The translations under genes were made by a program, and so were the position numbers. Below the pieces are notes generated by a model that did no database searches, was not told the DNA's origin, and was given only the letters and a program-made list of their open reading frames with translations. Shown one piece after another: positions 7,573 to 31,817 of a stretch of 40,514 nucleotides of DNA (positions are counted from its first letter, which is position 1; the number at the start of each line of letters is the position of its first letter). Source of the DNA: Clostridia bacterium (GTDB lineage: Bacteria > Bacillota > Clostridia > Oscillospirales > Acutalibacteraceae); contig JAFSGO010000038.1 of NCBI GenBank assembly GCA_017440765.1, positions 1 to 40,514 on the forward strand, given 5' to 3'.

Positions 7573-7924
7573 GGGGACGTAAAGGTTTCGACGGGGACCG
7601 TGAGCCCTGGTAAGCGAGTAGCGGTGCAGGACCGCTATAAACCCTGCAATCTTTTCAAAATAAACGACAACAATAAAGTTGCTCTCGCTGCTTAATTAAA
7701 AGCAGCCGTTCCGCCCCGAAGTACCGCGATCAGGGTTGGAGCGTCGATTAGCGGTGAACGTGAACAAAGCGCTGTCGCGTGCTTTGTCATGACCATGCGA
7801 CTACCGTAACCGAAAGCCTGCCTATCGGCGTTCGGCGAGGGGAATCCCAATTGATCGGCTGCACTCGGAGAAAACCACGGTAAATGATTTTCGGACAGGG
7901 GTTCGATTCCCCTCGTCTCCACCA
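7573..7924 (+). ncRNA. ssrA: tmRNA (transfer-messenger RNA)
   Basis: The 5' end GGGGACGUAAAGGUUUCGACGGGG pairs with the 3' end CGUCUCCACCA, including G3:U. The T-arm is GGGGUUCGAUUCCCC. The tag frame ends ...NNKVALAA with TAA at 7693-7695. Confidence 0.92.
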
Positions 7925-10437: not shown

Positions 10438-10443
10438 TATTAA

Positions 10444-10872
10444 TCAACCCCCAAAGAAATCTCGAATCGATTGATTGGAGATTGTTTTATCAAAAGGATT
10501 TTGATGAGCTTCCCTCCATGGCTTTTGATCGTGCGTTAACGAAACCAATGATGTAGTTGAATACTGTGCACACTCCTCGAGAATAAGATTAATCACATAC
10601 TTATCTTCATCCTCAATACCAAAATCGCCTTCAGCGATACTTTCCGGAATTCTGGCACCACCAAACATCTTATATTCTCGGTATACGTTAGGAACAACCG
10701 GCCCAAAATCCCACGCTTCTATACGATCTGAAAAGCAAGGGGTATGAATCGAAAATAAAAATTGGGCCTGAATAAAATAAAGCAACTTCTGTAGACGCAA
10801 ATTACTTACTGATCGATTTCGACTAGCTTCATAGCGAATCACATACCTTGCTATCTTAATTGCATCATACAT
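10444..10872 (-). CDS. Panacea / DUF4065 (SocA, GepA, PanA-like) antitoxin-domain protein
   Basis: MYDAIKIARYVI...LRLQKLLYFIQAQFL...RIEAWDFGPVVPNVYREYK...LVSLTHDQKPWREAH matches the DUF4065 signature. GGAGGTG lies upstream of the ATG at 10872. Confidence 0.85.
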   Translation of the reverse strand: MYDAIKIARYVIRYEASRNRSVSNLRLQKLLYFIQAQFLFSIHTPCFSDRIEAWDFGPVVPNVYREYKMFGGARIPESIAEGDFGIEDEDKYVINLILEECAQYSTTSLVSLTHDQKPWREAHQNPFDKTISNQSIRDFFGG

Positions 10873-10963
10873 TTCCCCACCTCCCATTTTTATTGTACAC
10901 GAATATTTTATAAATTTCCACCTTTTTTTACATCTAACGCTTATAACTTATCGTTTAGTATTC

Positions 10964-11549: not shown

Positions 11550-12371
11550 TTACTTTTTAACGATCTTGATCTGGATACAGTCAATCGCTTTCCCGAATAC
11601 GCCCGCGTAGCCGTCACCGGTCTTGTCCGATAATCCGGTACACCAGCCGTACCATCTGGCGTTTTGAGCAGCAGACACACGGTACTGCACTTCGTAGCCG
11701 TCTGCACCGATGAGTTGCATTTGCAGCGCATCGATTGCCTCCCCCTTATTGCCCGCGTAATCAGCGTCGTTTTCCACCCACGGCAACCAACGATTTTCAT
11801 CTAGCAAATGTACGCGATAACGCAAGGTACCGACGCTCGGTACTGCCTGCAATGCGGTCATACGCTTATTGACAACGCCGGCATAGCCGTTCGAATCTTT
11901 GTCGTTGCAGTTTGTTACAGGAGCCAACCACTTGTTTGTGTAAACCTTATATGTAACGTTGTGCTGCTGCAGATCGGCCTCCAGGAACGGTGTCGGATCA
12001 ATACGCGTGTTATGCAAACGCACCTCAAAATGTAAATGCGCGCCGTAGCTGCGCCCCGTATTACCCATCGTGCCGATCTCCTGCCCCGCTTTCACGGTTT
12101 GTCCGAGCTTTACGTACACAAGCGCAAGGTGAGCATATAGGGTACTGTATCCGTTACCGTGATCGATCTTCACACAGTTGCCGTAGCTCGCATTACCGAC
12201 AGCCAGTTTATTGTTTTTCTTTCCCGTTTGGCAGAAAACAACTTTACCGTCGCTGTGCGCGACGATCGTATCGAGCTGTGAGCGGTACTTCACCACGTCC
12301 ACCGCTTTGTGCCCTGCGCTGAATTTGGTAGTGATTTGGTTTTCACCGGTTTTTAATACTCTGCTTGCCAT
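11550..12371 (-). CDS. Endolysin: M23 (LytM) metallopeptidase with three ChW-type wall-binding repeats
   Basis: HKAVD, YAHL and GAHLHFEV are M23 motifs. The C-terminal repeats NKWLAPV..GYAGVVNKRMTALQ, ENRWLPWV..YAGNKGEAIDALQMQL and NARWYGWC..GYAGVFGKAIDCIQIKI resemble clostridial hydrophobic-W repeats. Confidence 0.85.
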   Translation of the reverse strand: MASRVLKTGENQITTKFSAGHKAVDVVKYRSQLDTIVAHSDGKVVFCQTGKKNNKLAVGNASYGNCVKIDHGNGYSTLYAHLALVYVKLGQTVKAGQEIGTMGNTGRSYGAHLHFEVRLHNTRIDPTPFLEADLQQHNVTYKVYTNKWLAPVTNCNDKDSNGYAGVVNKRMTALQAVPSVGTLRYRVHLLDENRWLPWVENDADYAGNKGEAIDALQMQLIGADGYEVQYRVSAAQNARWYGWCTGLSDKTGDGYAGVFGKAIDCIQIKIVKK

Positions 12372-13732
12372 TAGATATTACCTCCTAACTCTCTTACTGC
12401 CTGTTTCAACTGCTCGATTTGCTCGAGGAGTCCGTCAACATACTGTTTTGTTACAACAGAATTGGCGGTTGTACCTTGTGTTCTGACTTCGGCATGACCG
12501 TCGGTATAGGCAGAGAAAGCATTTCTATATTCATTTGTTCCATCCCCGGGGTTGCCTGTACCATCACCGATACCGAACACCATATCTTCTGTCATTCGAG
12601 AGAATTTACCAAAGACAGCTTGATGCGGTGCCGCGTCACTGTTAAGGTCACCACAAACAAAGCTATAATCATAATTTGCGCGGCACATCGAACCGATCGC
12701 CGCTGAGTATCTGCCACGCGCTATACACTCGTTACCAAGTGAGGCGGCACCTTCGGCGTCTGCTTCTGTCAACGACTTGTACCCGAACACAACGGAATAT
12801 TTGCCGTTTGCTGTCACTTTTTCACCGTGCGTAAATGAAGCAAACCCATGCGCTTTGGCACCTAAACCGAAAGCGGCGGCCGCATAAGCATCCGGACCGG
12901 TGTAAGCACTAATACCACTGGCAAAAGATCCTTCAGCATTTGCTTCTGAAAGTTGACCGGATGCAAAAGAGACGTTGCTATTCGCCTTTGCGCGGTCACC
13001 CAGCGCCACAGAAAAGATACCTTTTGCAATGTTGTTACAACCAGCCGAAAAAGCATAATGCCCCATCACTGTATTGCCAAAACCACCGGCAAAAGCACAA
13101 TAGCCCGTTTTATTGTTTCTTCCGACTGTGCCCGAATAGTTTCCGATTGCTTGGTTTCCTCTTCCGGCGGCAACAGTGCCTCGACCGGCAGCTATGTTAC
13201 TGTCGCCAAAGACAGCAACCGCCTTTTGATTAGTGATCGGCAAGCCAACCCATTTTCCTACAACCCATAACCAGTTCTCCGCGGGGTCACTGTCAAGAGC
13301 AACATCATGAGTGATCTCTACATTTGACGAATTTGCAAGTTGCAAGACCGTGTTTCCGTCGGCGTTTTTACTTTTTCCAATGATTTTAAAAATGTTATAC
13401 CAATGTTGCTTAGCATCCCACTGTACATATTCACCGACGGCGTAATGGTCGTGTGCTTTTTCTTCTAACTCTCGGTCGGCCAGAACAACCGACATGCTTT
13501 TTGAGTCAGCTGAAAGAGTTACATCACTGATGGGAAAGCCCTTGTACCCCGCCATGGTATTGGTTCCAAATCCCACCGAGCACTTTGCCAGGATCTCGTT
13601 GTTATCGTAGTCATTAAACACTGCGCAATTATTAGGCAGGTTCTTACCTGCGCCCGGTTCGCCTTTTAACGCCACGATCTCACGTTCTTGTCCGTTCTCG
13701 TCACGGATTCTTAAAATAGCCATTTCACTCAC
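12371..13732 (-). CDS. Tail fibre or receptor-binding protein with YadA-head-like repeats
   Basis: Runs of about 14-residue G/A/S/N repeats (AAGRGTVAAGRGNQAIGNYSGTVGRNN..FAGGFGNTVMGHYAFSAGCNN...) and a C-terminal coiled coil. The stop overlaps the endolysin start as TAATG. Confidence 0.7.
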   Translation of the reverse strand: MSEMAILRIRDENGQEREIVALKGEPGAGKNLPNNCAVFNDYDNNEILAKCSVGFGTNTMAGYKGFPISDVTLSADSKSMSVVLADRELEEKAHDHYAVGEYVQWDAKQHWYNIFKIIGKSKNADGNTVLQLANSSNVEITHDVALDSDPAENWLWVVGKWVGLPITNQKAVAVFGDSNIAAGRGTVAAGRGNQAIGNYSGTVGRNNKTGYCAFAGGFGNTVMGHYAFSAGCNNIAKGIFSVALGDRAKANSNVSFASGQLSEANAEGSFASGISAYTGPDAYAAAAFGLGAKAHGFASFTHGEKVTANGKYSVVFGYKSLTEADAEGAASLGNECIARGRYSAAIGSMCRANYDYSFVCGDLNSDAAPHQAVFGKFSRMTEDMVFGIGDGTGNPGDGTNEYRNAFSAYTDGHAEVRTQGTTANSVVTKQYVDGLLEQIEQLKQAVRELGGNI

Positions 13733-15695
13733 CCTCCAACTTGCTTAATCGAGCGTTAACGACATCTAATTGACTTTGTAGATCTTCGTTAATGGCATAA
13801 ACGTTATCGAGCTGATTCAATAAATGCTTACAAGCTGTTAAAGCCGTAACAGCCAGAGGTATCGCTTGCAAACCCAGTACCCGTTTCTTTTCGGTCACGG
13901 TTTCTTCAATCAAGTTACCCTGTTCATCATACTTCGCCGGAGTCACTTCGACATCTGTTGCATAGTCAATGCCCACGTATTTATATACCGGGTGTTCTGC
14001 GATGTCGTCTGCGATAAGGCCGAGCTGTTCTGCGTCTGGGCTGCCGTCCCCTTTATAGTTAAAGGTTACCGGTTGAAGGTTGCGCACAAAATCCACGAGA
14101 GTTTCCTCGGTAATATCACTTGTTTCAACCGGCTCATCGCGCAAGGACATTGTCATTGGTGTAAACTCGCTTATGACGTTCTTGATGTTTTCTTTAGCAT
14201 CCCTGGAGGAGGTTTGAATGGTGCCACTGGTGGTATACACTGCAGACCAAGGAGTCCCACTACTCCCTAAACGCACACTTGATGTATGACCATTACTCCA
14301 AGGGAGTACATATCCTATTGTTTGTATAACATCATCCACTGTTAAAACCTTTATGCCAGAACCTCCAGCAACTGTATCACTACTAAAATGTGAGCTAAGG
14401 TACAACTCAGGTCCTCGTGTCTCTACGTTCGCTGTATAAACATTATCAGCATTAACATTCTTAGTATCAACTTGATACTTTCCCCAATGCTCCCAAGGCC
14501 CGAATTCATTCGCAAGTATAGATCGTCTTAAACCGCTTCCCTGATATGAGTGCGTTTCGATGGTGCCGTAACTCAAATTCTTGGTGACAGTCTTATACAT
14601 GCGAATAAGATTATTTCCTGGAGCTGCCGTGCTTTTGTTTGTGTTCACGATCAACGTGAAGAATTCGACAGAATCAGACGGCATCGCATCCCACCACGCT
14701 TGCAGTTGCTTATCTACCGCGGCATCAACCTCTGCCTTTGTCATATCAGACGAACCCAAGGATGCCCAACCGCCATACATCACACGAGAAAACTTTGCGT
14801 CCAGTGCGGGGATTTCAGTATTGTGTTTTTTAGTTAGTTCCTCAATAGCTTTTTCATTCTCACCAACTCGCGTCTCAAGTGTACCAACTGCGTTTTCAGT
14901 ATCACCAACTCTCTCGCCAAGCCCCCCAATTGCCACTGCGACCGCGCTATTGGCAACAGGATTCACGCTCTCCGCGTTCAGTTCCGCGTCCATCTCAAGT
15001 ACAGCCCCATCAGGATCGATCTGGACACTGTACCCATCCGGCATATTCCCAGATCCTACATACACACCGGAGATTCCTTGCGGCCCTCTTACTGCACCCA
15101 CATCCACAAACGCAACGCCATCAAATACGTAGAGGTGATCATCATCTGCCAAATAACCGTCACCGGCAACTGCGGTGGGTATTTTTGTCTCAAGCTCTGA
15201 CACATCCGCAACAGAACCCTTAATGTAAATTGATTTACCATCCAACTCACCGTTTTCTAATTTTTGCTGCAAATCAGCGAGAAAACGTGTAAGAGCGTTA
15301 AATTCATTCGACGATTCAACGATCGGCTGCTCGTTATACAAGAGATCTGCTACTACGATATTGAAAGAAGGCGTCGTAATAACGGTGCCATCTGTTCCGA
15401 TCAACCGAATTTGGCATGATACGTTTCCTTCCTTTGCTATTGTTTGGTCGGTAATTTGATACGCAATAGTGTTGCTTTCAACTTCGACTTCGCAATCGTT
15501 ATAAATAAAATGTCCGTCCGGCTTTAAAGCGGTAAATTTCGCTGTGCAACCGGCACCGATCTCATACGGTCTTTCGTTTTCTGTCAGCGAAATAACAAGC
15601 TTTCGATTGGTATCGCCTCTGACCATAGATAAAACCTGCTGTGAACCAACCTTATACACATCAAGAGATACATTGTAAACAACCGGATTCATCAT
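13725..15695 (-). CDS. Tail fibre or baseplate protein: BppU-like N-domain plus C-terminal S74 intramolecular-chaperone autoprotease domain
   Basis: The N-terminus VRGDTNRKLVISLTENERPYEIGAGCTAKFTALKPDGHF...FNIVV is BppU-like. SSRDAKENI (Ser codon at 14208-14210), followed by LQPVTFNYK...LGLIADDI, resembles the S74 Ser/Lys site. AGGAG lies 10 nt before the ATG at 15695. Confidence 0.8.
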   Translation of the reverse strand: MMNPVVYNVSLDVYKVGSQQVLSMVRGDTNRKLVISLTENERPYEIGAGCTAKFTALKPDGHFIYNDCEVEVESNTIAYQITDQTIAKEGNVSCQIRLIGTDGTVITTPSFNIVVADLLYNEQPIVESSNEFNALTRFLADLQQKLENGELDGKSIYIKGSVADVSELETKIPTAVAGDGYLADDDHLYVFDGVAFVDVGAVRGPQGISGVYVGSGNMPDGYSVQIDPDGAVLEMDAELNAESVNPVANSAVAVAIGGLGERVGDTENAVGTLETRVGENEKAIEELTKKHNTEIPALDAKFSRVMYGGWASLGSSDMTKAEVDAAVDKQLQAWWDAMPSDSVEFFTLIVNTNKSTAAPGNNLIRMYKTVTKNLSYGTIETHSYQGSGLRRSILANEFGPWEHWGKYQVDTKNVNADNVYTANVETRGPELYLSSHFSSDTVAGGSGIKVLTVDDVIQTIGYVLPWSNGHTSSVRLGSSGTPWSAVYTTSGTIQTSSRDAKENIKNVISEFTPMTMSLRDEPVETSDITEETLVDFVRNLQPVTFNYKGDGSPDAEQLGLIADDIAEHPVYKYVGIDYATDVEVTPAKYDEQGNLIEETVTEKKRVLGLQAIPLAVTALTACKHLLNQLDNVYAINEDLQSQLDVVNARLSKLEGE

Positions 15696-15727
15696 GAATA
15701 TCAACTCCTATCATTAATAAAAATAAC

Positions 15728-15760
15728 ATACAGGGGAGGTTATCCTAAACCCCCCCTGTA
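15728..15760 (-). other. Intergenic hairpin with a G7/C7 tract between the giant gene and the fibre genes
   Basis: tacagggg (15729-15736) pairs with cccctgta (15753-15760). It contains the 15-mer tcctaaaccccccct (15743-15757), which also occurs at 35811-35825. Confidence 0.45.
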
Positions 15761-15771
15761 CTTAGTCGTTG

Positions 15772-18700
15772 CTATTCAGCTCTCCACTTTTTCAGCGTTT
15801 CATCCAGTTCACTGAGTGTACCATACAGACCCGTTGCATATAAGAGCTTACGTATACGATTCATCTCTGTATGGTCTCGGCTTTCCACTGCTTTGAGATA
15901 TTGCTTCTTAAAAGTAGCGGTAAAGGATGTACGCACAGCTGATCGCGCTTCCTTTTCAGTCTTGCCGGCTTTAACCTTCCTTTCGACTTGATCGGCAACT
16001 GTGCTCTTCACCGTCGCGGTATCTCCTCGTCCCGCAGCATTCTCTGACCGCTCGATCGCGGAAGTCTCATCTCCTGTGACACCTTCTTCAACTGCCTCTG
16101 CAATACCATACCACGTAAATTCCACTCCATTAGTAAAACTTTTATAGGTATTGCTCACGCCTTTCAGATCTCGCAAAATATTTTCGACAGGAACACCGAC
16201 AATAGCGGATACGGCAGATAGAACACCCAGCAGCTGATCGCTGAACGATTTGTTTTCATTGAAGCAATCCTTAACCGCTTTAACCAGGTTTCCCAGGATT
16301 GTTGTATCCATTCTTTCTATGTCGTATCCTTGTAGAATCGAAACAAGATCTTTGGCGTACGGGATATACATAAGCGGATTAAACGAGTCGATAATACCTT
16401 CCGTAACGTCAGCGATATATTTTTCCAACCATGTTTCATCCTCGTCATCATCCCGTCCGGCAGTCACCAGCGACCTGGCAAGTGCGTTCAGAACGTTTGA
16501 GGCAACTACCGCGGAAACCGTCCGGAATATTGTTTTTCGTCCTTCTTTTCCGCCTACTCGTTTCCCTTGAATAACCGAATCAGCCAACATATTTATGGTA
16601 GTGGTAGACTCTGCCATAAAAGCAGTCGCCATTTTCGCCAAACTGCTCCGACTTCTCATCGCTTCACTGCGAGAAAAAACGGAATCATAAACCTGAGTAA
16701 GCGTGATAACCTCGGTAAACCGTTCACCGCAGCGCTTTAAAAACTCCTCCGATTCTCTGTCCAGATCGGTTGTTGCTGCGATTTCGTTTTTCACTGCATG
16801 CCATATCTCGATCCAACCGACCTCGTCCATGAATGCTGGCAATCGGGAAAGCTTCTCATCACGGTAATCCCCATCCGTAAATAATGCCTTCAGCTTCTCT
16901 CGGCGTTCCTCATACTCGTCTGCCACAATCCAATCAACCGAGCTCTGCCCAACACCGGTATCAAAATATCCCATTTCCTTGATACCTGCTATCGGCGCAT
17001 ACGCTTTCAATTCTTCCCAGTCGCGGTTGTGCTCTTTAAGGTTAAGCGCCTTCACAGCCGCCGTCACAAAATATTTCTTGTCGATTTGCGAACATGCGCG
17101 TGCAACAGCGGTAGGCTGCTGGATCGCAACCGACAATGACAGGTATGTCGCGCCTTTTTTGGTAAGTGCTATCATTTTGTCAGCTGTAGCATCCTTCGAC
17201 GCCTTAATTCCGCCGTTAATATCCTGCAAAAGCGTCTTTACATATTCCGTTGCACCGGACCCGTACGCATTCTGCAAAATTGCTTTGACGGTTTCATTTT
17301 CACCTGTTCTTTGTCTGAAGTTAAAAACCCGGTTAAAATCCTCAAGCGGCAACACAAACGCATGGTACATAGACATATCGTTCACGTGCTTACCCCACAC
17401 GCCGGTAAAATCACTCAGCACAATAGGACTGGTGGAATTCGCGACCGTACTTTCTGTAAATCCGGAATTGATAAGCTTACGCTCTCCGACCTCATCCGGC
17501 TTAAAATCCATATAGTACGCGGAGGTTTTAAGCGGAAAATAATGCTCTTCCGTAAACAGCTTCACTCCGTATAGAGCCACGGAAACCTCGTTACCCTTCG
17601 CCCCCATGGTATCAGACAAATACGCCTGCATATCGTTTACGTATGCCTTTTGCTCCTCGCTCAAACTGGCAACAATATCCGTAAGAATATCCTCCGACAG
17701 CACGTAACGATTTGCCGTGTTCACCTGATACTTGATCGGGATCCCTCTCACGTTTTCTGTAACAATAACGTTCTGATCAAAAATGAAACCGCCGTTTGTC
17801 AAGTGATCTATGGCTTGTTTACCTCTCTGGGAATACGCATACAACGACAGCATTTGTTCAAGCGACAGCGTAAATAATTTCCCGTTCTCCGCTTCAAAGG
17901 TATACTGTTTTTTAAAATCCCACGCAGAGAATCCGTACTTTTTATTCATTTCCAAACGGAAGCACTGCGCATCCTTTGCATCACGATACCAGATATCCTC
18001 GCCCTCGCGAATGTTATTGTACAGATCTACAAGCGTTTTGGAACCGATTGTGCGGAAAGCGTAGATGGGCTTTAGGTTCTGCCACCCCACTTTTTTAATG
18101 TATGCAGCGACCTTTGTTTGCTTATCGATTGATTTGCTCACTGAACGGATTTCATTGATAACAGTATGTGCGGTATCCTCAACACCTTGTGTTGCCTGTA
18201 ACTTGAAAAATTTGTTAGCATTCTTAACGGTTGTTAGCACCATTTTATAGGTGTCATACACTTCCTGTAGCTGTACAATGCTCATATCCTTCACAGCCGT
18301 CCCCTGAACCGAATCCTTGAGCACAAGGATCCTGTTATAAAGGTGCTCGTTATATGCCTGAGCAACAGCAAGCTGTTCGGAGTTTTTGATAGATGCATAC
18401 GCATCTGCAAGCGATTGGAGCGCAGACGACACCGTCGCCTGATTCAACCTGGCACGTTCCCGAGCAAAGACATCAGAAAGATCCCGGTTATATCGTTTGA
18501 TTTTCGCATCAACCTTGTCCAGCATCTCCTGAATATCGAAGATCTGATCGCTGATACGAACGTCGCTCGCCATTTTACTAAGTGCCTCTATCTTGTCAAG
18601 ATATCCGTCCCGCACTTCTAACAAATCAGCATACCGTTTGAGAAGTTCCCCCTCTTTTGCGGTTACGGCGTCCACTCCGTTTCGCACGATCTCTTCATTC

Positions 18701-21700
18701 GTGACTTCCGATGTAAACATGAGCTCAGCAACCGCCAACGCCGATGCGACCGTATCCTTTAGATCCTCCTTAATATTCTGCTTTTTGTTTCCGTGCGCAA
18801 GTAGGTGCTTCAGCTCACGAACAACGCGCTTGATCTTGTGGCGCATTTCTGTCTTGCGTCTTCCCTCAACACCTCTTTCACGCATTTCCCGGTTATGCTG
18901 AATGATTTCCTGTATCCGGTCGGCATCCTTTTGCTTAAGAGAAGCAAGGGCCTCTCGCCCCTTTGCTTCCGCTCTCTTACGCACCATTTCCTTTTCTCGT
19001 TCGAGCAAACTCTTCATATGCTTAGTGGCCTCAAGACTGAGAAGCTTGCGGTCATAAATATTGATTCTGTTTGCTGTCTTGACCTTCTCCTCATTGAGTT
19101 GTTTAAGCCTTGCGGCATCCTTCTTGCCTTTGCTAAAAGAGAGCCTGTAGATTTCACTTTTAATCTCAGCAAGGTGTGACTCAAGTTCTTCAATCTTCGC
19201 GATGTTCTCTTGGTACTGCTGCAAAACATGAAGCTCGTTTTCGCCCACTTTGGTAGAGGTGTCTATCATTTCCGCCAAAGCATTTGCTAAAATAGTGCGA
19301 TTCGTGAGTTTTTTCTTCTGACTCTTGACAGAACCATAGGACATCCCCTTTTCGGGAATATCCTGCTCCTGTTGGTTCTTGACACCGTTGTCTGGTTGTG
19401 TTATACTTACATTGAAAAAAGGCGAATCGTTTAATAGCGAAGGCACAATGCTGCTGGAACTTCTTTGCGATCCGTCTTTTTTCTTATCAAAAATGACTTC
19501 GTTCTTAGGGTTTTCCAGCAGTTTCTTCAATTCCCCTGAATCAGGGGGGAAAGTCGTGACAAGGATGTTATATAATCCACCCTCATAGCCATTCATATAA
19601 ACAGAGTCTTTATCTTCGCCTATTTCCAGTACAGCAAACGCTTTTCTGCCACTTCGCGATGTATAGCCTATAACCTCGACATATCTATCGTTTCCGCCTT
19701 GGTACACGATATATTGCGGATCGCTCATTCCTTTAATAACAGAGATTATATCATCCACAGACATTTTATGAGGCCTTCCCTCTGTGTCCTGTCCGCTTCT
19801 TGCCATTGCTTGATAAGCTTTTTCGGCATCAATCGCAATTGGGTTATTGTCAATGACATCCCCGCGCCGAGACTTCGCCCAATGGATGAGAGGATAAGGG
19901 GTGTTGGTTCGAATTGGAAAATATGTATGCCCGTAAATTCTCCCCGATCTTACGCCTTCAAGCAACTCCCTAACGTCCTCTTCAGTTACTGTTCGCGGAT
20001 CGAATTTGCCATTTCCCTTCTTCTTCGCCTGTTTCTTGATACCGTTATAAGGCTGTGTTATACTCTTTTCATCGCCAACGGTTATATGACCTACCTCCGT
20101 ACGGTTTTTAGCGCTTGCAGGCGAACCGTTGGCCTTTTCATTTGTATAAGCCCCAAATTTGCTTTTCTCCGCCTGATAGTCATCGCCGACTTTTTCTGTG
20201 TCAATCTGTTTTTTCTGACTCTTGACGGAATCGTCCGCCTGTGCTATACTGCGAATGAGCCCAAATTTGGTTCCCCCTAACGGGACTTGTATCCCACAGG
20301 CATGGAACCACTTTTGGGTTCTTTTCTTGTCTTCGTCAAGGTACAGAACGGCGCCATCGGTAATTAGTTTTCCAACATCACGTCTTGCATTAAACGTTCG
20401 CACCTTACTTATGATGTTTCCACCTCTATCTTTTGAGATGGTTACACCCACCATCATAGGAGAACCGTTAACAAAGATGTTTCCAAAAACGCTTATGGTG
20501 TTCTCCTCACTATACTCACTTATCGCTACGGGGTTTGAGATGATACTTGGGATATTATTCAGCAAATCAACGTTAAGATAGTCTCCGTGGTCAACCATAT
20601 TTCGTTTGAGTTTATCAACATCATAGCGAATAACTCCACTAGGCATTCCAACCATGACCAAAGGACTGGCCTCTCCCAACGTCCCAACCTTGACAAAAGA
20701 ACCATGTTTCAGTGTTTTCCACTTTTGTATTTGTGATTTAAAATACTTATCTTCTGTGAAAACTTCACTGGCTGTCTGTTTCTTCTGAAATTTAGGGCTT
20801 ACAGGTTTTGCTTGATCACTTGACCGCAGATGTTCATTGCCTCCTGCGGTGTCATCTTGAAGTCCTTGGTTTCCAGGCGATCCAGCATTTCTATCATCAT
20901 TTCCTCGGTTTTGAGAAAACTGCAAATCCCACAAACCTCGTCTTGGCTCAGACCGAGCCGTTTTAATATCCGCATGAATGCCCCTATCTTCTTCTGCGTG
21001 TACTCGTTCATACAATGCCCTCATTTCTTCATAAGTTCCTGCAACAACCTCAAAATACCCATCTTCCATAGCCTCGATAAGAATATATTTCTTTCTTCTG
21101 CCATCGTAGATGATGGTATTGTCACCGCTTTGACGAGTGGTTTTGTTCGCCCATATCATTGCCGCCGTTGCAAATTCATTATAGACTGACCTTTTTTTCT
21201 TTGCAAGGCTTTTCTTCACCTGCCTCTTGAGGTCACCCTCAGTTTTACTGTTAACATCATTACCCGTCGCCGCCTGAAAACTCTGTGCCGCATCGACAGC
21301 CATATCCTCAAACAATTCATAAAACTTACTTAAGACATCATCCATCCGTTGGAGAGCCTTCGCTTCATCCGACAAACGTTCATCATAGCCGAGCGCATTA
21401 TACTCACCACGGATCTTATCCAAAACCTGGCAGATGTGTTGCTTGATTTTCTCCCACAAAGCATGGTCTTTCTGTTTCAACTGTGCAAGCTTCTCCATCG
21501 CATTGCTGTCAAGAAGCATTCTCTCGCAAGCATCGCATACCATTTCCTCAAATGCAACGTCGAGATCTTTCGTACCAAGCTCCGCCATCTTGAGTTTAAG
21601 TAAATCCGAGGTGGACACATTATGGTCGGCATACTGTTCCATTAGAAAATCAGCAAACACCTTGAACTTCGCGGGAGACCACACCTTAATGAAATGTGTT

Positions 21701-24700
21701 AATTCGTGAGCCATTGTAAACGCAATGGTTTTAGAATCATTTAAGCCTTTCTGAAGGTCAAGATGGATGCTATTGTCATTGGGATCAAAGTATCCATTAG
21801 AATCGCTGCCATATGTTCCGGCAATCGTAGAATCGTAGAACACGATGTCAATACCGAGCGCACTTGCAAGTTGTTTTGCAAGCGCAATCACTCTTTTTTG
21901 CGATTGCGTTGTTACCTTGGCTCCCTTTTCAAATCGAACCCTGCCTTTTTTGTGAGCACCGTTTTTGGAAGCGGTGCTTTTTTTATCATCTACCGCTTTT
22001 TGCGCAGCCTTAATACGTGCTTCAGAAGCGGCCTTACCAATGTTGTATGCCGCCTGTTTCTGTATGGGTGTAAGAGTGGAGATGAAAGTGCCGCGCGCTG
22101 TTTTCTTGATCGGATAGGAATACTCGCCGTAACGATACGCCTCTTGAATGCCGAGAATATAGTCGGTTACGTTACCGCCCTGCTTTTTAAAGTTATTAAC
22201 AAGCACGTTGGCATCGTCAACACTGACTCCCATATCCAGAACAGCCGAATACAGAAGCCCTTCATCATCGGAAGCAAATTCAACGTCTTCCGCGCTGACC
22301 GTTTCACCGTTGCTCAGGCGAAGCATCATTTTCTTCCCTTGAATAGAATCGATCCCGCTGATCTCGACGACCTCACCTGTCGTCGTGTCAACCGTCACCC
22401 CACTGTCGGTCACTTTAAATCGGTTTTCGGGAACAACTTGCTGAACCGTACCTTTATACGGCGCAACCGCCTCCCCGTTTTCCCTGCGCCGCGCCGCTTC
22501 CGCGTTGGAATATGGAATAAAAGGCGCGTTCTCAGCCACATCATTCATCCCGGCAGACGAATCCGTTACCGTGTTTCCGTTGACCTCACCGGTAACCGCT
22601 TTATCAGTAAGACTCTTATGGAGATCCTGATATCCTTGCACCCGTTGGTTGACTGTGGAATTCGGGTTAATAATAACGTCACGCATCGTCTGTGCAATAA
22701 GTTCGTTTTCTTCGATTGCCCTTACCTGTGATTTTGTGAAATATCCGCCCTCCACAGCTTTGTTAAGCCATTTTGCAATTGTTTGAGCGTGACTCGGTGC
22801 AATCCCCTTACGGGTAAGCGATTTGGTGATCTCCGCCAAATTCGTATCGGACAACGAATCTGCTCCCACCTCATGGAGAAGTCTGCCGATGGTATAAGCA
22901 CCGGTCTTCTCATTAACTTTGCCGGCAAGTCGATGCGCTACCGTATCGGCAGACATGGACTTGCCGAGCTTGACAAGGTTAGCTGTCTCACCTTTGCGGA
23001 TCACGTCTTTTCCTTTTTGATAGGTACTTACCTCCCCCGATACGATAGAGCCACCTTCTAACATACCGGCCGATATTGCGCCGAGCAGACCGGAATAGGC
23101 AACCTGCTGCCAGTCAACGTCTTTATCAGTATACAACACAAGGTTTTCAAAATACGGATTTAGGATTTCTTGTAAACCTTCCTCAAAACCTTCCGAAAGC
23201 AAGCTACCACCGAATTTAATGGCACCCCGTGCAAAGGCATTGTCAATACCAGATATCATTTTCGAGATAGCACCGTTGGTTAACGTACCGCCAAGCTTGC
23301 TGATACCGCCAAGAAGAAACTCCAGACCGGCTTCAGAACCGCCAACGAGTGCTGCATAGGAACGAGCCTGCCCTTTGTCATATCCCAGGTTTATCATCTC
23401 TTGATAGGCATTACCCGCAGCAGATGCACCCATCAAAGTGGCACCGACAACTTGGCCGGCCAACGGATTAATCAGACCAACAGCAGTCGACGTCAACACA
23501 GAAGGCAGCATGTTTCCCGTTGTGGTAGCGGCATCAAATCCAATTTGTCCAAGCGAGCTTCCCAAAATGTTCGTCCCAACGTCGTAAAGATCATCCCTCA
23601 CCATGCCGGATGTCATCTGCATAGAAGACACCGGAATATAGTCGTCACCGTTAAAAAAATTAGCCACACCGGAAGCGAATTGATCAATACCCGCTCCAAA
23701 ACCGAAGGCAATTTCAAGAAACGTGTTGTCCTTTAATTTCTCAAACCGTTCCTCCGCTTCTCTTCTGTTCAACGACTCTTCAATGCTGCCAAGATATTCA
23801 TTCGCTTTATCTTCACCAGAAGCGCCATAATAGTAGCAATAGGTTTGGTATTCCTTATCGCTCATATACTTTGCTGCATGTTCTTCAGGTGACAGAGGAG
23901 TTGCATTACCGTCCCTGTTATACAGATAGTGATATGGTGTTCCGTCCTCATCGCGGTTATTTCGGAAAGCGATAATAGCGTTATTGACATCGGAACCAAA
24001 CACTGTACCTCTACCATTGGTTCCCAAGAACGCATCGTGAGTTGCAAGTCCCTTGCTTTCACCGATAGCAGCCTTGTTTTCGAAATCAGGATCATAATTT
24101 TTCGATTCAGGATCAGCAACAGATGCCATTTCGATGCTCTTCTGGATACGGGAAGCCACGTTGTAATACTGTGTCTTATCGGACAGAGTTTTATCAATGT
24201 CTACTCCGCCAAACTTTCCATTGGCGGCTTCCCTTGCCTTTCTTCTTGCCGTATCGGCCATATATCCTTTTTTTAGATATTCAGTTAGATTTTCGGCATA
24301 ATAAACATCCCATTGACGCTTTTTCCCCTTCAGATCTTCGATTTCCGCGCTCAAAGCAGGAAGGTCAGCAACCTTTTGCTCTTCGTAGACCTTCAAAGCC
24401 TCCAAATCGGCTTTGTACGCATCCTCCGTGTTCCATTGCGACCAATAATCAAAATCACTTTTATATGTCTCAGAAATACTGGTATAGTTTTCTTTCGCGC
24501 TCTTCAGCCAATCACGAATACCGGCTGCCGTCTCAGCATCATAAAGATCACTATATTGATTGAGCGCATTTAATATTCGTTGAGACTCCGCATCAAACTT
24601 GGACTTTTGCGCGGAAAAAGAAGTATATGCTTCCTCCGTATCCCCACGAAAACGATCGTTGATGAACTCCTCATTTTCATTGAAAAAGCGCGTTTTGTAA

Positions 24701-24876
24701 GAATCGTAGACTTCATTGCTTTCCTTTATCAAGTTTTCTATGCTAAGAGAAGCATTGACACGTTCTTGTCTTTGATAATCACCTAAGGATGTAACACCCT
24801 TCGACCGTCTTCCTAGCATCTGAAAATACTGTTCTGTTGTCATCCCGCTTTTTTGCAGATATTCTGATAATTTCAT
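15772..24876 (-). CDS. Giant (3,034 aa) polyvalent virion or ejection protein with a zincin-like HExxH metallopeptidase module
   Basis: A single open frame. AAGGGGAGAG lies before the ATG at 24876 (MKLSEYLQ...). Modules seen: a Gly/Ala-rich hydrophobic segment (~23040-23720), TMAHELTHF (HELTHF at 21691-21708), two paralogous alpha/beta modules (~20245-20700 and ~19480-20010), a long K/E/R coiled coil (~17900-19300) and a large C-terminal domain. Confidence 0.85.
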   Translation of the reverse strand: MKLSEYLQKSGMTTEQYFQMLGRRSKGVTSLGDYQRQERVNASLSIENLIKESNEVYDSYKTRFFNENEEFINDRFRGDTEEAYTSFSAQKSKFDAESQRILNALNQYSDLYDAETAAGIRDWLKSAKENYTSISETYKSDFDYWSQWNTEDAYKADLEALKVYEEQKVADLPALSAEIEDLKGKKRQWDVYYAENLTEYLKKGYMADTARRKAREAANGKFGGVDIDKTLSDKTQYYNVASRIQKSIEMASVADPESKNYDPDFENKAAIGESKGLATHDAFLGTNGRGTVFGSDVNNAIIAFRNNRDEDGTPYHYLYNRDGNATPLSPEEHAAKYMSDKEYQTYCYYYGASGEDKANEYLGSIEESLNRREAEERFEKLKDNTFLEIAFGFGAGIDQFASGVANFFNGDDYIPVSSMQMTSGMVRDDLYDVGTNILGSSLGQIGFDAATTTGNMLPSVLTSTAVGLINPLAGQVVGATLMGASAAGNAYQEMINLGYDKGQARSYAALVGGSEAGLEFLLGGISKLGGTLTNGAISKMISGIDNAFARGAIKFGGSLLSEGFEEGLQEILNPYFENLVLYTDKDVDWQQVAYSGLLGAISAGMLEGGSIVSGEVSTYQKGKDVIRKGETANLVKLGKSMSADTVAHRLAGKVNEKTGAYTIGRLLHEVGADSLSDTNLAEITKSLTRKGIAPSHAQTIAKWLNKAVEGGYFTKSQVRAIEENELIAQTMRDVIINPNSTVNQRVQGYQDLHKSLTDKAVTGEVNGNTVTDSSAGMNDVAENAPFIPYSNAEAARRRENGEAVAPYKGTVQQVVPENRFKVTDSGVTVDTTTGEVVEISGIDSIQGKKMMLRLSNGETVSAEDVEFASDDEGLLYSAVLDMGVSVDDANVLVNNFKKQGGNVTDYILGIQEAYRYGEYSYPIKKTARGTFISTLTPIQKQAAYNIGKAASEARIKAAQKAVDDKKSTASKNGAHKKGRVRFEKGAKVTTQSQKRVIALAKQLASALGIDIVFYDSTIAGTYGSDSNGYFDPNDNSIHLDLQKGLNDSKTIAFTMAHELTHFIKVWSPAKFKVFADFLMEQYADHNVSTSDLLKLKMAELGTKDLDVAFEEMVCDACERMLLDSNAMEKLAQLKQKDHALWEKIKQHICQVLDKIRGEYNALGYDERLSDEAKALQRMDDVLSKFYELFEDMAVDAAQSFQAATGNDVNSKTEGDLKRQVKKSLAKKKRSVYNEFATAAMIWANKTTRQSGDNTIIYDGRRKKYILIEAMEDGYFEVVAGTYEEMRALYERVHAEEDRGIHADIKTARSEPRRGLWDLQFSQNRGNDDRNAGSPGNQGLQDDTAGGNEHLRSSDQAKPVSPKFQKKQTASEVFTEDKYFKSQIQKWKTLKHGSFVKVGTLGEASPLVMVGMPSGVIRYDVDKLKRNMVDHGDYLNVDLLNNIPSIISNPVAISEYSEENTISVFGNIFVNGSPMMVGVTISKDRGGNIISKVRTFNARRDVGKLITDGAVLYLDEDKKRTQKWFHACGIQVPLGGTKFGLIRSIAQADDSVKSQKKQIDTEKVGDDYQAEKSKFGAYTNEKANGSPASAKNRTEVGHITVGDEKSITQPYNGIKKQAKKKGNGKFDPRTVTEEDVRELLEGVRSGRIYGHTYFPIRTNTPYPLIHWAKSRRGDVIDNNPIAIDAEKAYQAMARSGQDTEGRPHKMSVDDIISVIKGMSDPQYIVYQGGNDRYVEVIGYTSRSGRKAFAVLEIGEDKDSVYMNGYEGGLYNILVTTFPPDSGELKKLLENPKNEVIFDKKKDGSQRSSSSIVPSLLNDSPFFNVSITQPDNGVKNQQEQDIPEKGMSYGSVKSQKKKLTNRTILANALAEMIDTSTKVGENELHVLQQYQENIAKIEELESHLAEIKSEIYRLSFSKGKKDAARLKQLNEEKVKTANRINIYDRKLLSLEATKHMKSLLEREKEMVRKRAEAKGREALASLKQKDADRIQEIIQHNREMRERGVEGRRKTEMRHKIKRVVRELKHLLAHGNKKQNIKEDLKDTVASALAVAELMFTSEVTNEEIVRNGVDAVTAKEGELLKRYADLLEVRDGYLDKIEALSKMASDVRISDQIFDIQEMLDKVDAKIKRYNRDLSDVFARERARLNQATVSSALQSLADAYASIKNSEQLAVAQAYNEHLYNRILVLKDSVQGTAVKDMSIVQLQEVYDTYKMVLTTVKNANKFFKLQATQGVEDTAHTVINEIRSVSKSIDKQTKVAAYIKKVGWQNLKPIYAFRTIGSKTLVDLYNNIREGEDIWYRDAKDAQCFRLEMNKKYGFSAWDFKKQYTFEAENGKLFTLSLEQMLSLYAYSQRGKQAIDHLTNGGFIFDQNVIVTENVRGIPIKYQVNTANRYVLSEDILTDIVASLSEEQKAYVNDMQAYLSDTMGAKGNEVSVALYGVKLFTEEHYFPLKTSAYYMDFKPDEVGERKLINSGFTESTVANSTSPIVLSDFTGVWGKHVNDMSMYHAFVLPLEDFNRVFNFRQRTGENETVKAILQNAYGSGATEYVKTLLQDINGGIKASKDATADKMIALTKKGATYLSLSVAIQQPTAVARACSQIDKKYFVTAAVKALNLKEHNRDWEELKAYAPIAGIKEMGYFDTGVGQSSVDWIVADEYEERREKLKALFTDGDYRDEKLSRLPAFMDEVGWIEIWHAVKNEIAATTDLDRESEEFLKRCGERFTEVITLTQVYDSVFSRSEAMRSRSSLAKMATAFMAESTTTINMLADSVIQGKRVGGKEGRKTIFRTVSAVVASNVLNALARSLVTAGRDDDEDETWLEKYIADVTEGIIDSFNPLMYIPYAKDLVSILQGYDIERMDTTILGNLVKAVKDCFNENKSFSDQLLGVLSAVSAIVGVPVENILRDLKGVSNTYKSFTNGVEFTWYGIAEAVEEGVTGDETSAIERSENAAGRGDTATVKSTVADQVERKVKAGKTEKEARSAVRTSFTATFKKQYLKAVESRDHTEMNRIRKLLYATGLYGTLSELDETLKKWRAE
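19379..19407 (+). promoter_or_regulatory. Near-consensus sigma-A promoter motif antisense to the giant gene (copy A)
   Basis: TTGACA (19379-19384), a 17-nt spacer, then TGt-TATACT (19402-19407). On the sense strand it encodes SITQPDNGVK. Confidence 0.35.
20036..20064 (+). promoter_or_regulatory. Near-consensus sigma-A promoter motif antisense to the giant gene (copy B)
   Basis: TTGATA (20036-20041), a 17-nt spacer, then TGt-TATACT (20059-20064). On the sense strand it encodes SITQPYNGIK. Confidence 0.35.
20222..20250 (+). promoter_or_regulatory. Near-consensus sigma-A promoter motif antisense to the giant gene (copy C)
   Basis: TTGACG (20222-20227), a 17-nt spacer, then TGc-TATACT (20245-20250). 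On the sense strand it encodes SIAQADDSVK. Confidence 0.35.
20799..21011 (-). CDS. Candidate nested (overprinted) 70-aa gene in the +1 frame of the giant gene
   Basis: MNEYTQKKIGAFMRILKRLGLSQDEVCGICSFLKTEEMMIEMLDRLETKDFKMTPQEAMNICGQVIKQNL has a helical, globular-looking composition. GAGGG lies 6 nt upstream of the ATG. The main frame is compositionally aberrant over exactly this span. Confidence 0.3.
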   Translation of the reverse strand: MNEYTQKKIGAFMRILKRLGLSQDEVCGICSFLKTEEMMIEMLDRLETKDFKMTPQEAMNICGQVIKQNL

Positions 24877-24894
24877 AATGCTCTCCCCTTGCAA

Positions 24895-29391: not shown

Positions 29392-30384
29392 TTAGTTTTC
29401 TTTTAGATCTGCAGAGAAAGCTGCGGACTTCGATTCCACACGAACAATGTAGTTCGGGATCAGAAGCTCCGCAGTTTTAATTGCTTTCCAGCCAACCGAG
29501 CTTCTCTGATCGAGAGGATCGGCAGTGCCGGCGGATCCTTTTTGCTTCACGATGGTCTGCAAACCGCCGCCGGTGATCTCCGTAACACCGTAAGCGCCTT
29601 CACCAAAAATCAATGTACCGAAAACCCCGCCCTCGTAGATCTTCGCTTCAGAAGTCTGTACAAAACGAACACCGGCAACCTCGCCGATCTCGCCTTCATA
29701 CAAATTGGTAGGCGTTGCATACTTATGCGCCTCAATCCACTCTGGATCGCGCATAAGGTCATACGCAGCATACGGATGGATGATTGCCACATACTTACCG
29801 TCAATAGTAGGTGCATTCTGCGAGCGCAACTTGGCAACGACCTGTTGAATGACCTTAACCGTCAACTGAGCTGTCTCATCCAGATCCCCACGGGACTCAA
29901 CAACAGTCTCGGTGCCGTCGGCAGCTACCTTCGGGCAATAGGTAACGTTCGTACCACCCTGCAGAACGTTGCGTGTTACCGTATCCAAAGTCGCACCTGC
30001 TTGCCGGCCCAGAAGCTTGGTCGCCTCAAGGATGGTATTGTCCAAGGAGGTCAGCTCCAGGACGTCGGACTGTACGATATAGTCACCGTACTGTTCTACG
30101 GTAGCGGTGATGTTCGTCACCGTCAAGCTATTGCCAGAGGGAGTCACACCTTCTACCAACGGCGTGGAAGCTTTTTCAAGCGGTGAGAATTTACGGAACT
30201 CGATCGTTTTGCCGCTACCCTGCGGAATCGGACGCTTCTGACCGAACTGATCATGAACAAGCGCTGCGGAAGCCTCGTCAATAAGCGTCATGTCATAAAA
30301 GGTCTTCATCTCTGCAGAGAGAGAATCCTGCGTGGTAACCTGTGTTGCAAATAACTGCAGATTGATAGCTAATACATTTTTCAT
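29392..30384 (-). CDS. Major capsid protein (HK97-like) with an N-terminal Prp-cleavable leader
   Basis: MKNVLAINLQLFA|TQVTTQDSLSAEMKTFYD..., 330 aa. Its position after the scaffold is typical. The start was chosen at the ATG at 30384, which has AAAGGGGA upstream. Confidence 0.85.
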   Translation of the reverse strand: MKNVLAINLQLFATQVTTQDSLSAEMKTFYDMTLIDEASAALVHDQFGQKRPIPQGSGKTIEFRKFSPLEKASTPLVEGVTPSGNSLTVTNITATVEQYGDYIVQSDVLELTSLDNTILEATKLLGRQAGATLDTVTRNVLQGGTNVTYCPKVAADGTETVVESRGDLDETAQLTVKVIQQVVAKLRSQNAPTIDGKYVAIIHPYAAYDLMRDPEWIEAHKYATPTNLYEGEIGEVAGVRFVQTSEAKIYEGGVFGTLIFGEGAYGVTEITGGGLQTIVKQKGSAGTADPLDQRSSVGWKAIKTAELLIPNYIVRVESKSAAFSADLKEN

Positions 30385-30452
30385 TTTATAATCCCCTTTC
30401 TTATTGTTCCGATCAATGTCGGAAGATAACCTGAGGAGATTGGACAAGGTTA

Positions 30453-31472: not shown

Positions 31473-31817
31473 TTACGCCTTGCCAAACGGTTTCAACTTC
31501 ACATGATCGGGATATGCCTGTTCAAGTAGCGAATACCCGACCTCTGCAACTAAAAGAATGTGAAGCGCTTCCTCATGGAAGGCCTCTTTCGGCTTGCAAA
31601 TTACGGTTGCATTCCCATCCTCTAGGATCACATTCGGTTTCTTATACAGTTTCTTTTCTTCATACATAAAGCTAACGGCCTTGGCTACCGTATATGTAAG
31701 AATGGAAACAGCAGAACAAACAATATCCTTACCATACTCGTCAAAATCAGCATGACCCTTCACCTTTAAGCAATAGACCCCTTTGAGTGCATCTTGTTCA
31801 AATTCAATCGTAATCAT
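31473..31817 (-). CDS. Prp-family cysteine protease (ribosomal-processing cysteine protease homologue), phage-encoded
   Basis: KVKGHADFDEYGKDIVCSAVSIL matches the GHA...G.DIVC(A/S)AVS His/Cys catalytic signature of Prp (DUF464). 114 aa. Confidence 0.85.
   Translation of the reverse strand: MITIEFEQDALKGVYCLKVKGHADFDEYGKDIVCSAVSILTYTVAKAVSFMYEEKKLYKKPNVILEDGNATVICKPKEAFHEEALHILLVAEVGYSLLEQAYPDHVKLKPFGKA

Follow-up and report, generated by a model that had tools for sequence, protein, structure and literature searches.

Contig JAFSGO010000038.1 of a Clostridia bacterium (GenBank assembly GCA_017440765.1; Acutalibacteraceae), a stretch of 40,514 nucleotides (nt) referred to here as the window, carries a prophage in which one giant gene encodes a protein of 3,034 amino acids (aa). 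Comparison with its relatives showed that this protein is built as a conserved chassis, made of an N-terminal (N) and a C-terminal (C) scaffold, around an exchangeable cargo slot that differs in length and content from one relative to the next. Its domains and gene neighbourhood support assigning it to the polyvalent proteins as Iyer et al. 2017 defined them (PMC5512222). Reasoning from context and analogy, we hold with moderate confidence that the protein is packaged in the virion and injected into the host: it would be packed into the head, leave through a short tail, be anchored in the membrane by its N scaffold and be cleaved by its zincin domain, releasing two ribonuclease (RNase)-like effectors. 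What is new here is the chassis-and-slot layout, a set of short junction peptides and a weak link between the N scaffold and the N-terminal domain of gp50 of phage N4. The gene and the parts of its product are as follows (nt positions in the window).

15772..24876, minus strand: whole gene, with an ATG start behind the ribosome-binding site AAGGGGAGAG; 3,034 codons plus stop; identical protein on three contigs.
23725..24876, minus strand: charged alpha-helical N-terminal region, aa 1-384; conserved in the family from about aa 100; helices predicted by AlphaFold2, with low predicted local distance difference test (pLDDT) scores at aa 1-90.
22957..23724, minus strand: Gly/Ala/Ser-rich, nearly charge-free helical segment, aa 385-640; from composition, invariant residues and eight predicted helices.
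22426..22605, minus strand: predicted disordered linker, aa 758-817; AlphaFold2 pLDDT 24-43.
21397..21951, minus strand: zincin-like metallopeptidase domain, aa 976-1160; from invariant residues, predicted secondary structure and sub-threshold profile matches.
19300..21276, minus strand: variable cargo cassette, aa 1201-1859; from the coverage profile and cassette lengths.
20842..21264, minus strand: small domain without family match, aa 1205-1345; present in six of 285 proteins compared.
20197..20760, minus strand: MuF_C module 1 (PBECR-type, predicted RNase), aa 1373-1560; Pfam PF18819.
19387..20019, minus strand: divergent MuF_C/PBECR-like module 2, aa 1620-1830; linked by iterated hidden Markov model (HMM) search.
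19373-19407, 20030-20064 and 20216-20250, minus strand: three copies of the junction peptide SI[TA]Q..[ND][GS][VI]K.Q, at module borders.
19312-19333 and 20209-20230, minus strand: two copies of the junction peptide SVKSQKK, at module borders.
18427..19299, minus strand: K/E/R-rich, Pro/Gly-poor stretch, presumably helical, aa 1860-2150; conserved, opens the C scaffold.
16027..18426, minus strand: all-alpha C-terminal module, aa 2151-2950; from PHROG 22978 and AlphaFold2.

The chassis emerged from a coverage profile computed by BLAST over 119 listed relatives. Two blocks, at aa ~100-1200 and ~1850-2950, are conserved, and the intervening aa ~1250-1850 are common to almost none: about 26 of the 119 relatives align at aa 1201-1250, one to three at aa 1251-1600 and 8-16 at aa 1601-1850. 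Lengths were taken from the 205 relatives that carry both anchors. The N scaffold measures ~1,200 aa and the C scaffold a median of ~1,290 aa in these relatives (~1,170 aa in the window protein). The cassette that they enclose has a median length of 1,110 aa, with extremes of 33 and 2,087 aa (660 aa in the window protein). Cassettes of relatives hold ART-PolyVal, LPD3, PBECR3, LPD23, MuF_C, PF18814 and C5 DNA methylase domains, ART-PolyVal occurring in roughly a third of the listed relatives; these are the families that Iyer et al. 2017 defined for polyvalent proteins (PMC5512222). At least half of 24 aligned relatives also carry an unannotated cassette domain with the column-consensus motifs DFSTLCxKR, ACxLCYVE, QSxSDFxxxHxxDY and IDYxIPxHxSG, which the window protein lacks. 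One relative (P0002) has a 1,272-aa cassette without any Pfam match, which may or may not hold this domain.

Polyvalent proteins combine several disparate domains in one chain and are phage-encoded beside late or virion genes. In the window protein a single chain joins two MuF_C/PBECR-type modules to an HExxH domain of zincin type and to other domains without assignment, and its gene lies, within a prophage beside a transfer-messenger RNA (tmRNA) gene, between portal, capsid and tail genes on one side and a fibre gene on the other.

The family is large. A word-indexed search returned 398 relatives, the best 120 of which are 2,300-4,600 aa long and lie mostly on contigs of 40-45 kilobases (kb); whole-protein relatives are 33-57% identical among the matches listed. 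The C-terminal 801 aa, run exhaustively through phmmer, matched 3,944 cluster representatives at E<=1e-3, with 2,758 of them at E<=1e-30. In the best 150 of these matches the matching region is near the C-terminus, and most of the proteins are 2,000-4,650 aa long, the shorter ones being fragment-like. Scanning one genome per species gave 105 loci, all of them in gut or rumen metagenome-assembled genomes (MAGs) of Oscillospirales and other Clostridia (Acutalibacteraceae, Faecousia, Oscillospiraceae, Ruminococcaceae). Neither the GenBank phages nor the genome scan contained a cultured, characterised family member: a 24-kb megablast query had no match among GenBank phages, a tblastn search of GenBank phage records for the C module gave one unannotated faecal contig only, and the nearest cultured relatives of the portal protein, at 23-24% identity, are uninformative. 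One MAG contig (JAFTXX010000014.1) carries two giant-protein loci ~40 kb apart whose C modules are equally similar to the query, an arrangement suggestive of a pair of related prophages, either in tandem or close together.

A gene of this size calls for a check on its reality. The open reading frame (ORF) call, the frame and the neighbours agree on one uninterrupted ORF of 3,034 codons plus stop between the structural and the fibre genes, as an earlier note made from the sequence alone had claimed; counted from the first TTG the ORF spans 15772-24894. The ATG at 24876 is the likely start, since AAGGGGAGAG stands 6-7 nt 5' of it as a ribosome-binding site and the upstream gene's stop codon precedes it, leaving a gap of 18 nt. 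At 9.1 kb the gene fills about 28% of the prophage sequence that can be seen to the right of the tmRNA gene (~32.5 kb), in line with the figure of over a quarter given earlier. It could be imagined that mis-assembly had fused several genes, or that the gene is a decaying pseudogene, and the giant size taken alone counts for such an artefact. Against this, the 9.1-kb frame is uninterrupted, the identical protein is found on three contigs, and more than 200 full-length relatives possess the same N and C scaffolds with dozens of invariant residues across both. The assembly artefact, which the earlier note had itself named as the way its reading could fail, is excluded by the two-ended relatives and the identical contigs, and we give any artefact a negligible probability. 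Three stop-free stretches run antisense to the gene on the plus strand in the codon-aligned frame (21745-22728, 19576-20277 and 23284-23733; 328, 234 and 150 codons). They were rejected as genes: the gene of a relative (locus L001) has similar ones at other positions, pointing to an effect of codon usage.

Within the cassette, module 1 is recognised directly, with a match to MuF_C (PF18819) at aa 1429-1519 of 40.8 bits and E 2.5e-10 against a gathering threshold of 27.6 bits. Its conserved residues are H1430, K1491, R1493, T1494 and R1498. The closest copies of this module are 57-75% identical, compared with 33-57% for whole-protein relatives, which fits module exchange. Module 2, whose conserved residues are H1703, T1774, K1686 and R1731, has no Pfam match, and BLAST of module 1 against module 2 gave no similarity. 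An iterated HMM search from module 2 through the 285-protein set nevertheless reached Pfam-annotated MuF_C modules via intermediates in rounds 1-4, at entry E-values of 3.7e-12 to 3.5e-05 (the first MuF_C-annotated entrant, P0120, at 1.1e-6). Direct HHalign of the two modules gave E 0.016 over the motif His...L.vD.L..I...P..I, the one to which the earlier note had drawn attention, and one relative of module 2 (P0142) has a weak MuF_C match of its own, at E 0.011. The suggestion of two paralogous MuF-C or PBECR-type modules stands at Pfam significance for module 1; for module 2 the iterated search and the shared His motif suggest homology to module 1. H1430/T1494 and H1703/T1774, together with basic residues, are conserved within the respective sub-families. 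A His with a Thr/Ser makes up the PBECR active site, in the configuration of active PBECR RNases, an activity that is itself a prediction in the literature (Iyer et al., PMC5512222). The two pairs probably represent this catalytic pair, judging from their conservation.

Both junction peptides of the window protein are also repeated as DNA, at 83-91% identity. Relatives have a [YF]S[DE]RD-type junction instead, 25 times denser in cassettes than in scaffolds and present in up to five copies per protein, the last copy typically lying 11 aa ahead of the C scaffold. The peptides may be linker, recombination or cleavage sites. Read on the plus strand, the three DNA copies of the longer junction each fit a sigma-70 promoter with a TG-extended -10 element (TTGACA-17-TATACT and variants) at 10-11 of 12 positions, the copies not being independent of one another; promoter-like sites are not enriched in the region (24, against 18.6 +/- 4.2 in shuffles).

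Ahead of the cassette, at the end of the N scaffold, lies the zincin-like domain. The protein has a single HExxH, the HELTHF at 21691-21708, with H1057, E1058 and H1061 at nt 21694-21708. H1057, H1061 and E1111 (nt 21544-21546) are invariant in two family alignments; for E1058 the same is true of one alignment, the other showing it nearly invariant. The predicted elements are helix 991-1007, strands 1011-14, 1028-31 and 1036-40, helix 1047-66 with the HExxH, and helix 1105-22 with E1111 (model pLDDT ~60-80), an order that agrees with the zincin core of helix, three-strand sheet and two helices given by Iyer et al. (PMC5512222). The predicted structure thus contains what characterises zincins in general, namely a HExxH helix, a downstream Glu on the next conserved helix and a three-stranded sheet before them. 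Pfam's MPTase-PolyVal family (PF18818) matched the window protein at 14-17.5 bits against a gathering threshold of 27.5. A rescue through ten relatives failed, all staying below threshold: three had sub-threshold MPTase-PolyVal matches (13.6-17.4 bits) and seven had none, with weak matches to other zincin families. Since the window protein and all ten relatives fall short, we call the domain zincin-like; on these profile scores it is not a Pfam MPTase-PolyVal member and belongs to a clade outside the reach of the Pfam model. Of the zincin motif reported earlier, then, the HELTHF position and the HExxH domain with its invariant Glu hold, and the likeness to the metallopeptidase module of polyvalent proteins stays below the MPTase-PolyVal threshold. 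Foldseek of both our AlphaFold2 models (N scaffold and C module) against the PDB returned nothing below E 0.19, the zincins ACE2 and ERAP2 appearing only at E 0.5-3.6. The HExxH motif in the C-terminal domain of N4 gp50 (aa 2228) paired with the window motif at E 0.019; this was lost with a deeper alignment and is not relied on.

The rest of the N scaffold is largely helical. A model built by AlphaFold2 with 24 relatives (pLDDT 67, predicted template modelling score (pTM) 0.44) has helices up to aa 757, followed by the linker, a small beta-plus-helix domain and the zincin-like region. The Gly/Ala/Ser-rich hydrophobic segment pointed out earlier at ~23040-23720 is real and extends over nt 22957-23724. 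Over aa 401-500 the fraction of K/R/E is 0.02 and that of G/A/S 0.34, and the invariant residues of aa 385-640 include G396, Q399, G403, E562, E565, E566 and Q569. Transmembrane-like hydropathy peaks are weak, at most 1.31 over 19 aa in the N scaffold. On composition and conservation, aa 385-640 is a candidate membrane-anchoring module.

This segment also shows a similarity to N4 gp50. First, HHalign of an aa 380-645 profile (24 sequences) against ten N4-like sequences gave a probability (P) of 21% and E 2.2e-4, collinear over 251 columns. Second, a 170-sequence profile against the N-terminal domains of N4-like proteins gave P 62% and E 7.6e-5 over the core region. Third, full-length virion RNA polymerases (vRNAPs) were matched in the same place at E 0.0039, and the sole HHalign match to N4 gp50 is N-terminal. 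Lastly, with an N4-family HMM a dozen real proteins scored 8-16 bits at the position that corresponds, and reversed decoys no more than 7.4 bits. The N scaffold and the N4 domain have the motifs G-A-x-x-A-G-x-A-Y-Q and E-x-x-E-E-G-[LIV]-Q in common; in N4 gp50 (L086), GAMEAGGAYQQ (aa ~295-305) and ETVEEGVQ (~385-395) resemble GASAAGNAYQE and SEGFEEGLQE of the window protein, at similar spacing. N4 gp50 has predicted membrane-spanning helices at aa 224-278, just ahead of the first motif, and its N-terminal domain, when isolated, goes into nanodiscs (PMC13434306). The N scaffold of the window protein is at its most hydrophobic at aa 466-484, directly ahead of the same motif. We regard a relationship between the N scaffold and the lipid-binding N-terminal domain of N4 gp50 as a weak lead from profile comparison.

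These observations bear on the main rival to our proposal, which keeps packaging and injection and denies any membrane role. The protein would then be cargo only, a head-internal anti-defence or takeover protein like DarB and DdrB of phage P1, whose scaffolds serve capsid targeting and whose zincin acts in processing within the head ahead of injection, with no part in membrane anchoring or in the DNA conduit. P1 DdrB is processed before packaging, and processing at that stage is an option in Iyer et al. (PMC5512222); the N-scaffold hydropathy is modest, and neither a peptidoglycan hydrolase nor a pore-forming family was detected in the protein with Pfam or NCBIfam. The similarity to the lipid-binding domain of N4, weak but position-specific, speaks for membrane contact instead, and a capsid-targeting tag would hardly account for ~250 aa of almost uncharged helices that contain invariant residues. 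We judge the cargo-only explanation rather unlikely.

The C scaffold opens with the K/E/R-rich stretch of aa 1860-2150, where about 400 aa of coiled coil had been proposed. The charged stretch exists, at ~300 aa; the coiled coil is not borne out, a simple heptad test giving no clear signal and not singling out these residues. Behind it, the C-terminal region that the earlier note could assign to no family is real: aa 2151-2950 match PHROG 22978 (function unknown) and nothing else, at E 4.5e-236 in three stretches, the best at aa 2169-2932. Its invariant motifs are TQVYDS..SRS..MRSK, AFMAEPTT and RDDDEDE. The AlphaFold2 model is all-alpha (pLDDT 71, pTM 0.69). No Pfam match was found for the module, Foldseek found no PDB fold match, and neither the single protein nor a 17-sequence profile had any match when PDB sequences were searched. 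In BFVD, 82 matches at E<=1e-3 are C-terminal pieces of giant viral proteins, with names such as 'PolyVal ADP-ribosyltransferase', 'MuF C-terminal domain-containing', 'LPD-containing' and 'Nuclease', and they reach environmental phages at 10-15% identity and template modelling (TM) scores of 0.55-0.68.

The genomic setting places the gene within the structural block of the prophage. The host is a member of the spore-forming Clostridia, as spoIIIAA, spoIIIAE, lexA and the tmRNA gene (7573-7924) lie at the left of the window; from ~8 kb to the window end every long ORF is on the minus strand. In transcription order the neighbours are the following.

33850-35289, minus strand: large terminase, first in transcription order.
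31827-33863, minus strand: P22-like portal, next after the terminase.
Between portal and major capsid protein, minus strand: 321-aa protein.
29392-30456, minus strand: major capsid protein, with two small proteins coming next.
Upstream of the giant gene, minus strand: 596-aa protein, its C-terminal half matching a PHROG annotated 'internal virion protein'.
Between the 596-aa gene and the giant gene, minus strand: 260-aa and 379-aa proteins, no match.
15728..15761, minus strand: terminator-like hairpin of 14 pairs, GC-rich, then a T-run; directly 3' of the giant-gene stop, ahead of the fibre gene.
13725-15704, minus strand: fibre with BppU_N and S74 chaperone domains, downstream of the giant gene.
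After the fibre gene, minus strand: 453-aa protein, then an M23 peptidase (11550-12371).

The 596-, 379- and 260-aa proteins had zero matches among PDB sequences. A short-tailed virion is the likely morphology, because searches of the prophage with Pfam, PHROG and NCBIfam turned up no family of tape-measure, tail-tube, sheath or assembly-chaperone proteins. The closest relative (57% identity) has the same order of portal, capsid, giant gene and BppU_N fibre, followed by holin, amidase and serine recombinase. A homologue of the upstream 379-aa protein is present at 41 of 80 genome loci. Downstream sequence of 2.5 kb or more is available at 54 loci, and a BppU_N homologue follows at 35 of them, on the same strand in all and with the domain beginning a median 735 nt past the C-module match.

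Two further explanations are weighed by this setting. One takes the protein for a tape-measure or purely structural tail protein of a long-tailed phage, with the enzyme-like modules as decorations. Gly-rich hydrophobic and charged helical stretches would suit it, and so would the neighbours, as the next gene carries BppU_N and one relative DUF859, both best known from siphoviruses. It is opposed by the profiles, in which no tape-measure family of Pfam, PHROG or NCBIfam matched (a plain tape-measure protein was another outcome that the earlier note had named as fatal to its reading), by the missing tube, sheath and chaperone genes and the P22-like portal, and by the fact that the length of 2,300-4,650 aa varies through the domain cassette and not through the helical parts. 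Tape measures usually scale at 1.5 Å per residue, at which ~3,000 residues would imply a tail of ~450 nm. We therefore consider this explanation very improbable. The other places the protein inside the cell, expressed late or in the lysogen for superinfection exclusion or as a toxin, and merely located inside the structural block. In its favour, hosts can capture polyvalent proteins (Iyer et al., PMC5512222), and a strong terminator follows the gene, the hairpin at 15728-15761 being the strongest terminator-like site in 11.5 kb. Position and strand between tail and fibre genes are nevertheless kept in dozens of loci, the gene lies only 18 nt behind its upstream neighbour, where it has a ribosome-binding site to itself and a promoter is not evident, and the analogous giants N4 gp50 and phi24B gp47 are in virions, so that this explanation is improbable, if less so than the previous one. 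Artefact, structural tail protein and intracellular protein are all unlikely.

Several observations on the prophage stand beside these results. It adjoins the tmRNA gene, whose tag is DNNKVALAA, and its other end lies beyond the window. There is no integrase between the tmRNA and the lysis genes, where the closest relative instead has a serine recombinase after its amidase; the lysis enzyme of the window prophage is apparently the M23 peptidase (11550-12371). A low-GC island at the prophage end (9439-10887, minus strand; GC 0.37 against ~0.45 for the prophage) holds two genes, one for a 147-aa protein with a SocA/Panacea antitoxin domain and one for a protein of 332 aa whose weak match is to a BrkB-like membrane family, and is probably a toxin-antitoxin or defence moron. 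A small gene behind the portal in a relative (L001, 1346-1687) encodes a Prp-type cysteine peptidase (PF04327); the corresponding position in the window has a 114-aa ORF (31473-31817, minus strand).

Our preferred reading, of a packaged and injected polyvalent protein, would unfold in a series of steps. The protein would be synthesised late and taken into the head, with packaging and portal contacts made by one of the two scaffolds or by both together. At infection it would exit via the short tail in the manner proposed for N4 gp50, as loosely connected domains on flexible linkers. Those helices of the N scaffold that are poor in charge and rich in Gly/Ala/Ser would then insert into or dock on the cytoplasmic membrane, and the zincin would cut the chain, possibly at the repeated junction peptides bordering the modules. 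Within minutes of the start of infection the freed RNase-like modules could target RNAs of the host or of defence systems, and swaps of cassettes between related phages would retune the cargo. A number of points weigh against this sequence of events. Close relatives all come from metagenomes or MAGs, and virion presence and injection are deduced by analogy for the whole family; the short tail is deduced from the absence of long-tail genes, the 260-, 379- and 596-aa neighbours having no match among PDB sequences. The zincin domain is below the Pfam threshold in the window protein and ten relatives, the RNase activity of PBECR modules is itself a prediction of the literature, and the C scaffold lacks sequence similarity to the N4 C-terminal domain and to phi24B gp47. 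Hydropathy peaks of the N scaffold are modest, with the maximum of 1.31 over 19 aa, and the link to N4 is weak, with P no higher than 62% and, where full-length vRNAPs are compared, E 0.0039.

A bolder extension is that the family is a general protein-injection chassis evolutionarily related to N4 gp50, sharing its membrane-anchoring N module, in which the zincin cuts at the junction peptides (SI.Q....[VI]K.Q and SVKSQKK; [YF]S[DE]RD in relatives) and these double as in-frame recombination joints for effector swaps. We offer this tentatively, as possible and on balance doubtful. Injected phage proteins act ahead of any phage gene expression and so decide whether an infection passes the host defences; polyvalent proteins were predicted to be such cargo in 2017 and have been almost untested since. 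The present family is very abundant in phages of uncultured gut Clostridia, and its two constant scaffolds with one hypervariable slot make it a natural catalogue of early effectors (RNase-like modules, ADP-ribosyltransferases, methylases, unknown domains), whose chassis could double as a delivery vehicle. Conceptually the window protein adds little; its value is that of a mapped template for experiments.

Among known systems, the nearest in kind are the polyvalent proteins surveyed by Iyer et al. 2017 (PMC5512222), a survey that began from N4 gp50, a 3,500-aa injected virion protein, and that describes large polyvalent proteins as lying among virion genes and probably being packaged and injected. 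The window protein resembles them as one giant chain with a zincin-type peptidase and PBECR/MuF_C modules among late virion genes, and its relatives carry ART-PolyVal, LPD3, LPD23, PBECR3 and methylase domains in the same slot. It differs in that ~2,400 of its 3,034 residues form two scaffolds matching no Pfam polyvalent domain; in the sections of the survey available to us we found no description of a fixed layout of N scaffold, cassette and C scaffold, or of junction peptides.

N4 gp50 (Schitoviridae) is itself injected; it has a beads-on-a-string organisation and a lipid-binding N-terminal domain (PMC13434306). The two proteins are alike in size, in a three-part plan with flexible linkers (N module, central cargo, large C module) and in a HExxH motif, and the Gly/Ala-rich N region of the window protein aligns weakly to the lipid-binding domain. 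Unlike N4 gp50, the window protein has no RNA polymerase domain: a virion RNA polymerase of the N4-like or crAss-like kind was considered and rejected, as Pfam and NCBIfam gave no polymerase family. Its cargo is RNase-like, its zincin precedes the cargo where in N4 it follows, and comparison of sequence profiles shows no relationship between its C scaffold and the N4 C-terminal domain. The window phage also differs from N4 as a temperate phage with a genome of ~40-45 kb and a Gram-positive Clostridia host.

Gp47 of the Shiga toxin (Stx) phage phi24B (2,811 aa; LPD5, LPD1, LPD38 and MuF_C) was detected when virions were analysed by mass spectrometry, and a role in ejection has been proposed for it (bioRxiv 10.64898/2026.04.10.717836). 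It too is a giant protein of a temperate short-tailed phage (the morphology predicted for the window phage) with MuF_C at the end of the structural block. It differs in LPD5, LPD1 and LPD38, and comparison with either scaffold or with the N-scaffold profile of the window protein found no detectable similarity. The ~41-kb gut prophages phi1 and phi4 of Clostridium clostridioforme LM41, predicted to be podovirus-like and with podovirus-like particles seen by electron microscopy, each have one 8-kb ORF, ~20% of the genome, with similarity to polyvalent proteins (LPD3; PMC11318856). We liken these ORFs to the window protein by description. With gp30 (MuF) of phage Mu and the MuF-fused toxins the window protein has the MuF_C/PBECR domain type in common, without the Phage_Mu_F N-terminal head domain of gp30; the Mu copy is predicted to be inactive (Iyer et al., PMC5512222), whereas both copies in the window protein keep the His/Thr pair.

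Set beside these systems, the earlier reading of a polyvalent virion protein fares well on identity, through MuF_C, the divergent second copy, the zincin and the block of virion genes, and not on rarity. The fusion of polyvalent cargo to the ejection protein of a short-tailed phage had been called unusual. Because N4 gp50, phi24B gp47, the LM41 prophages and Iyer et al. 2017 provide precedents, it is instead a recognised and common arrangement, with 3,944 cluster representatives of the C module alone; as a polyvalent protein the window protein is of a kind already known, and a well-dissected example of it.

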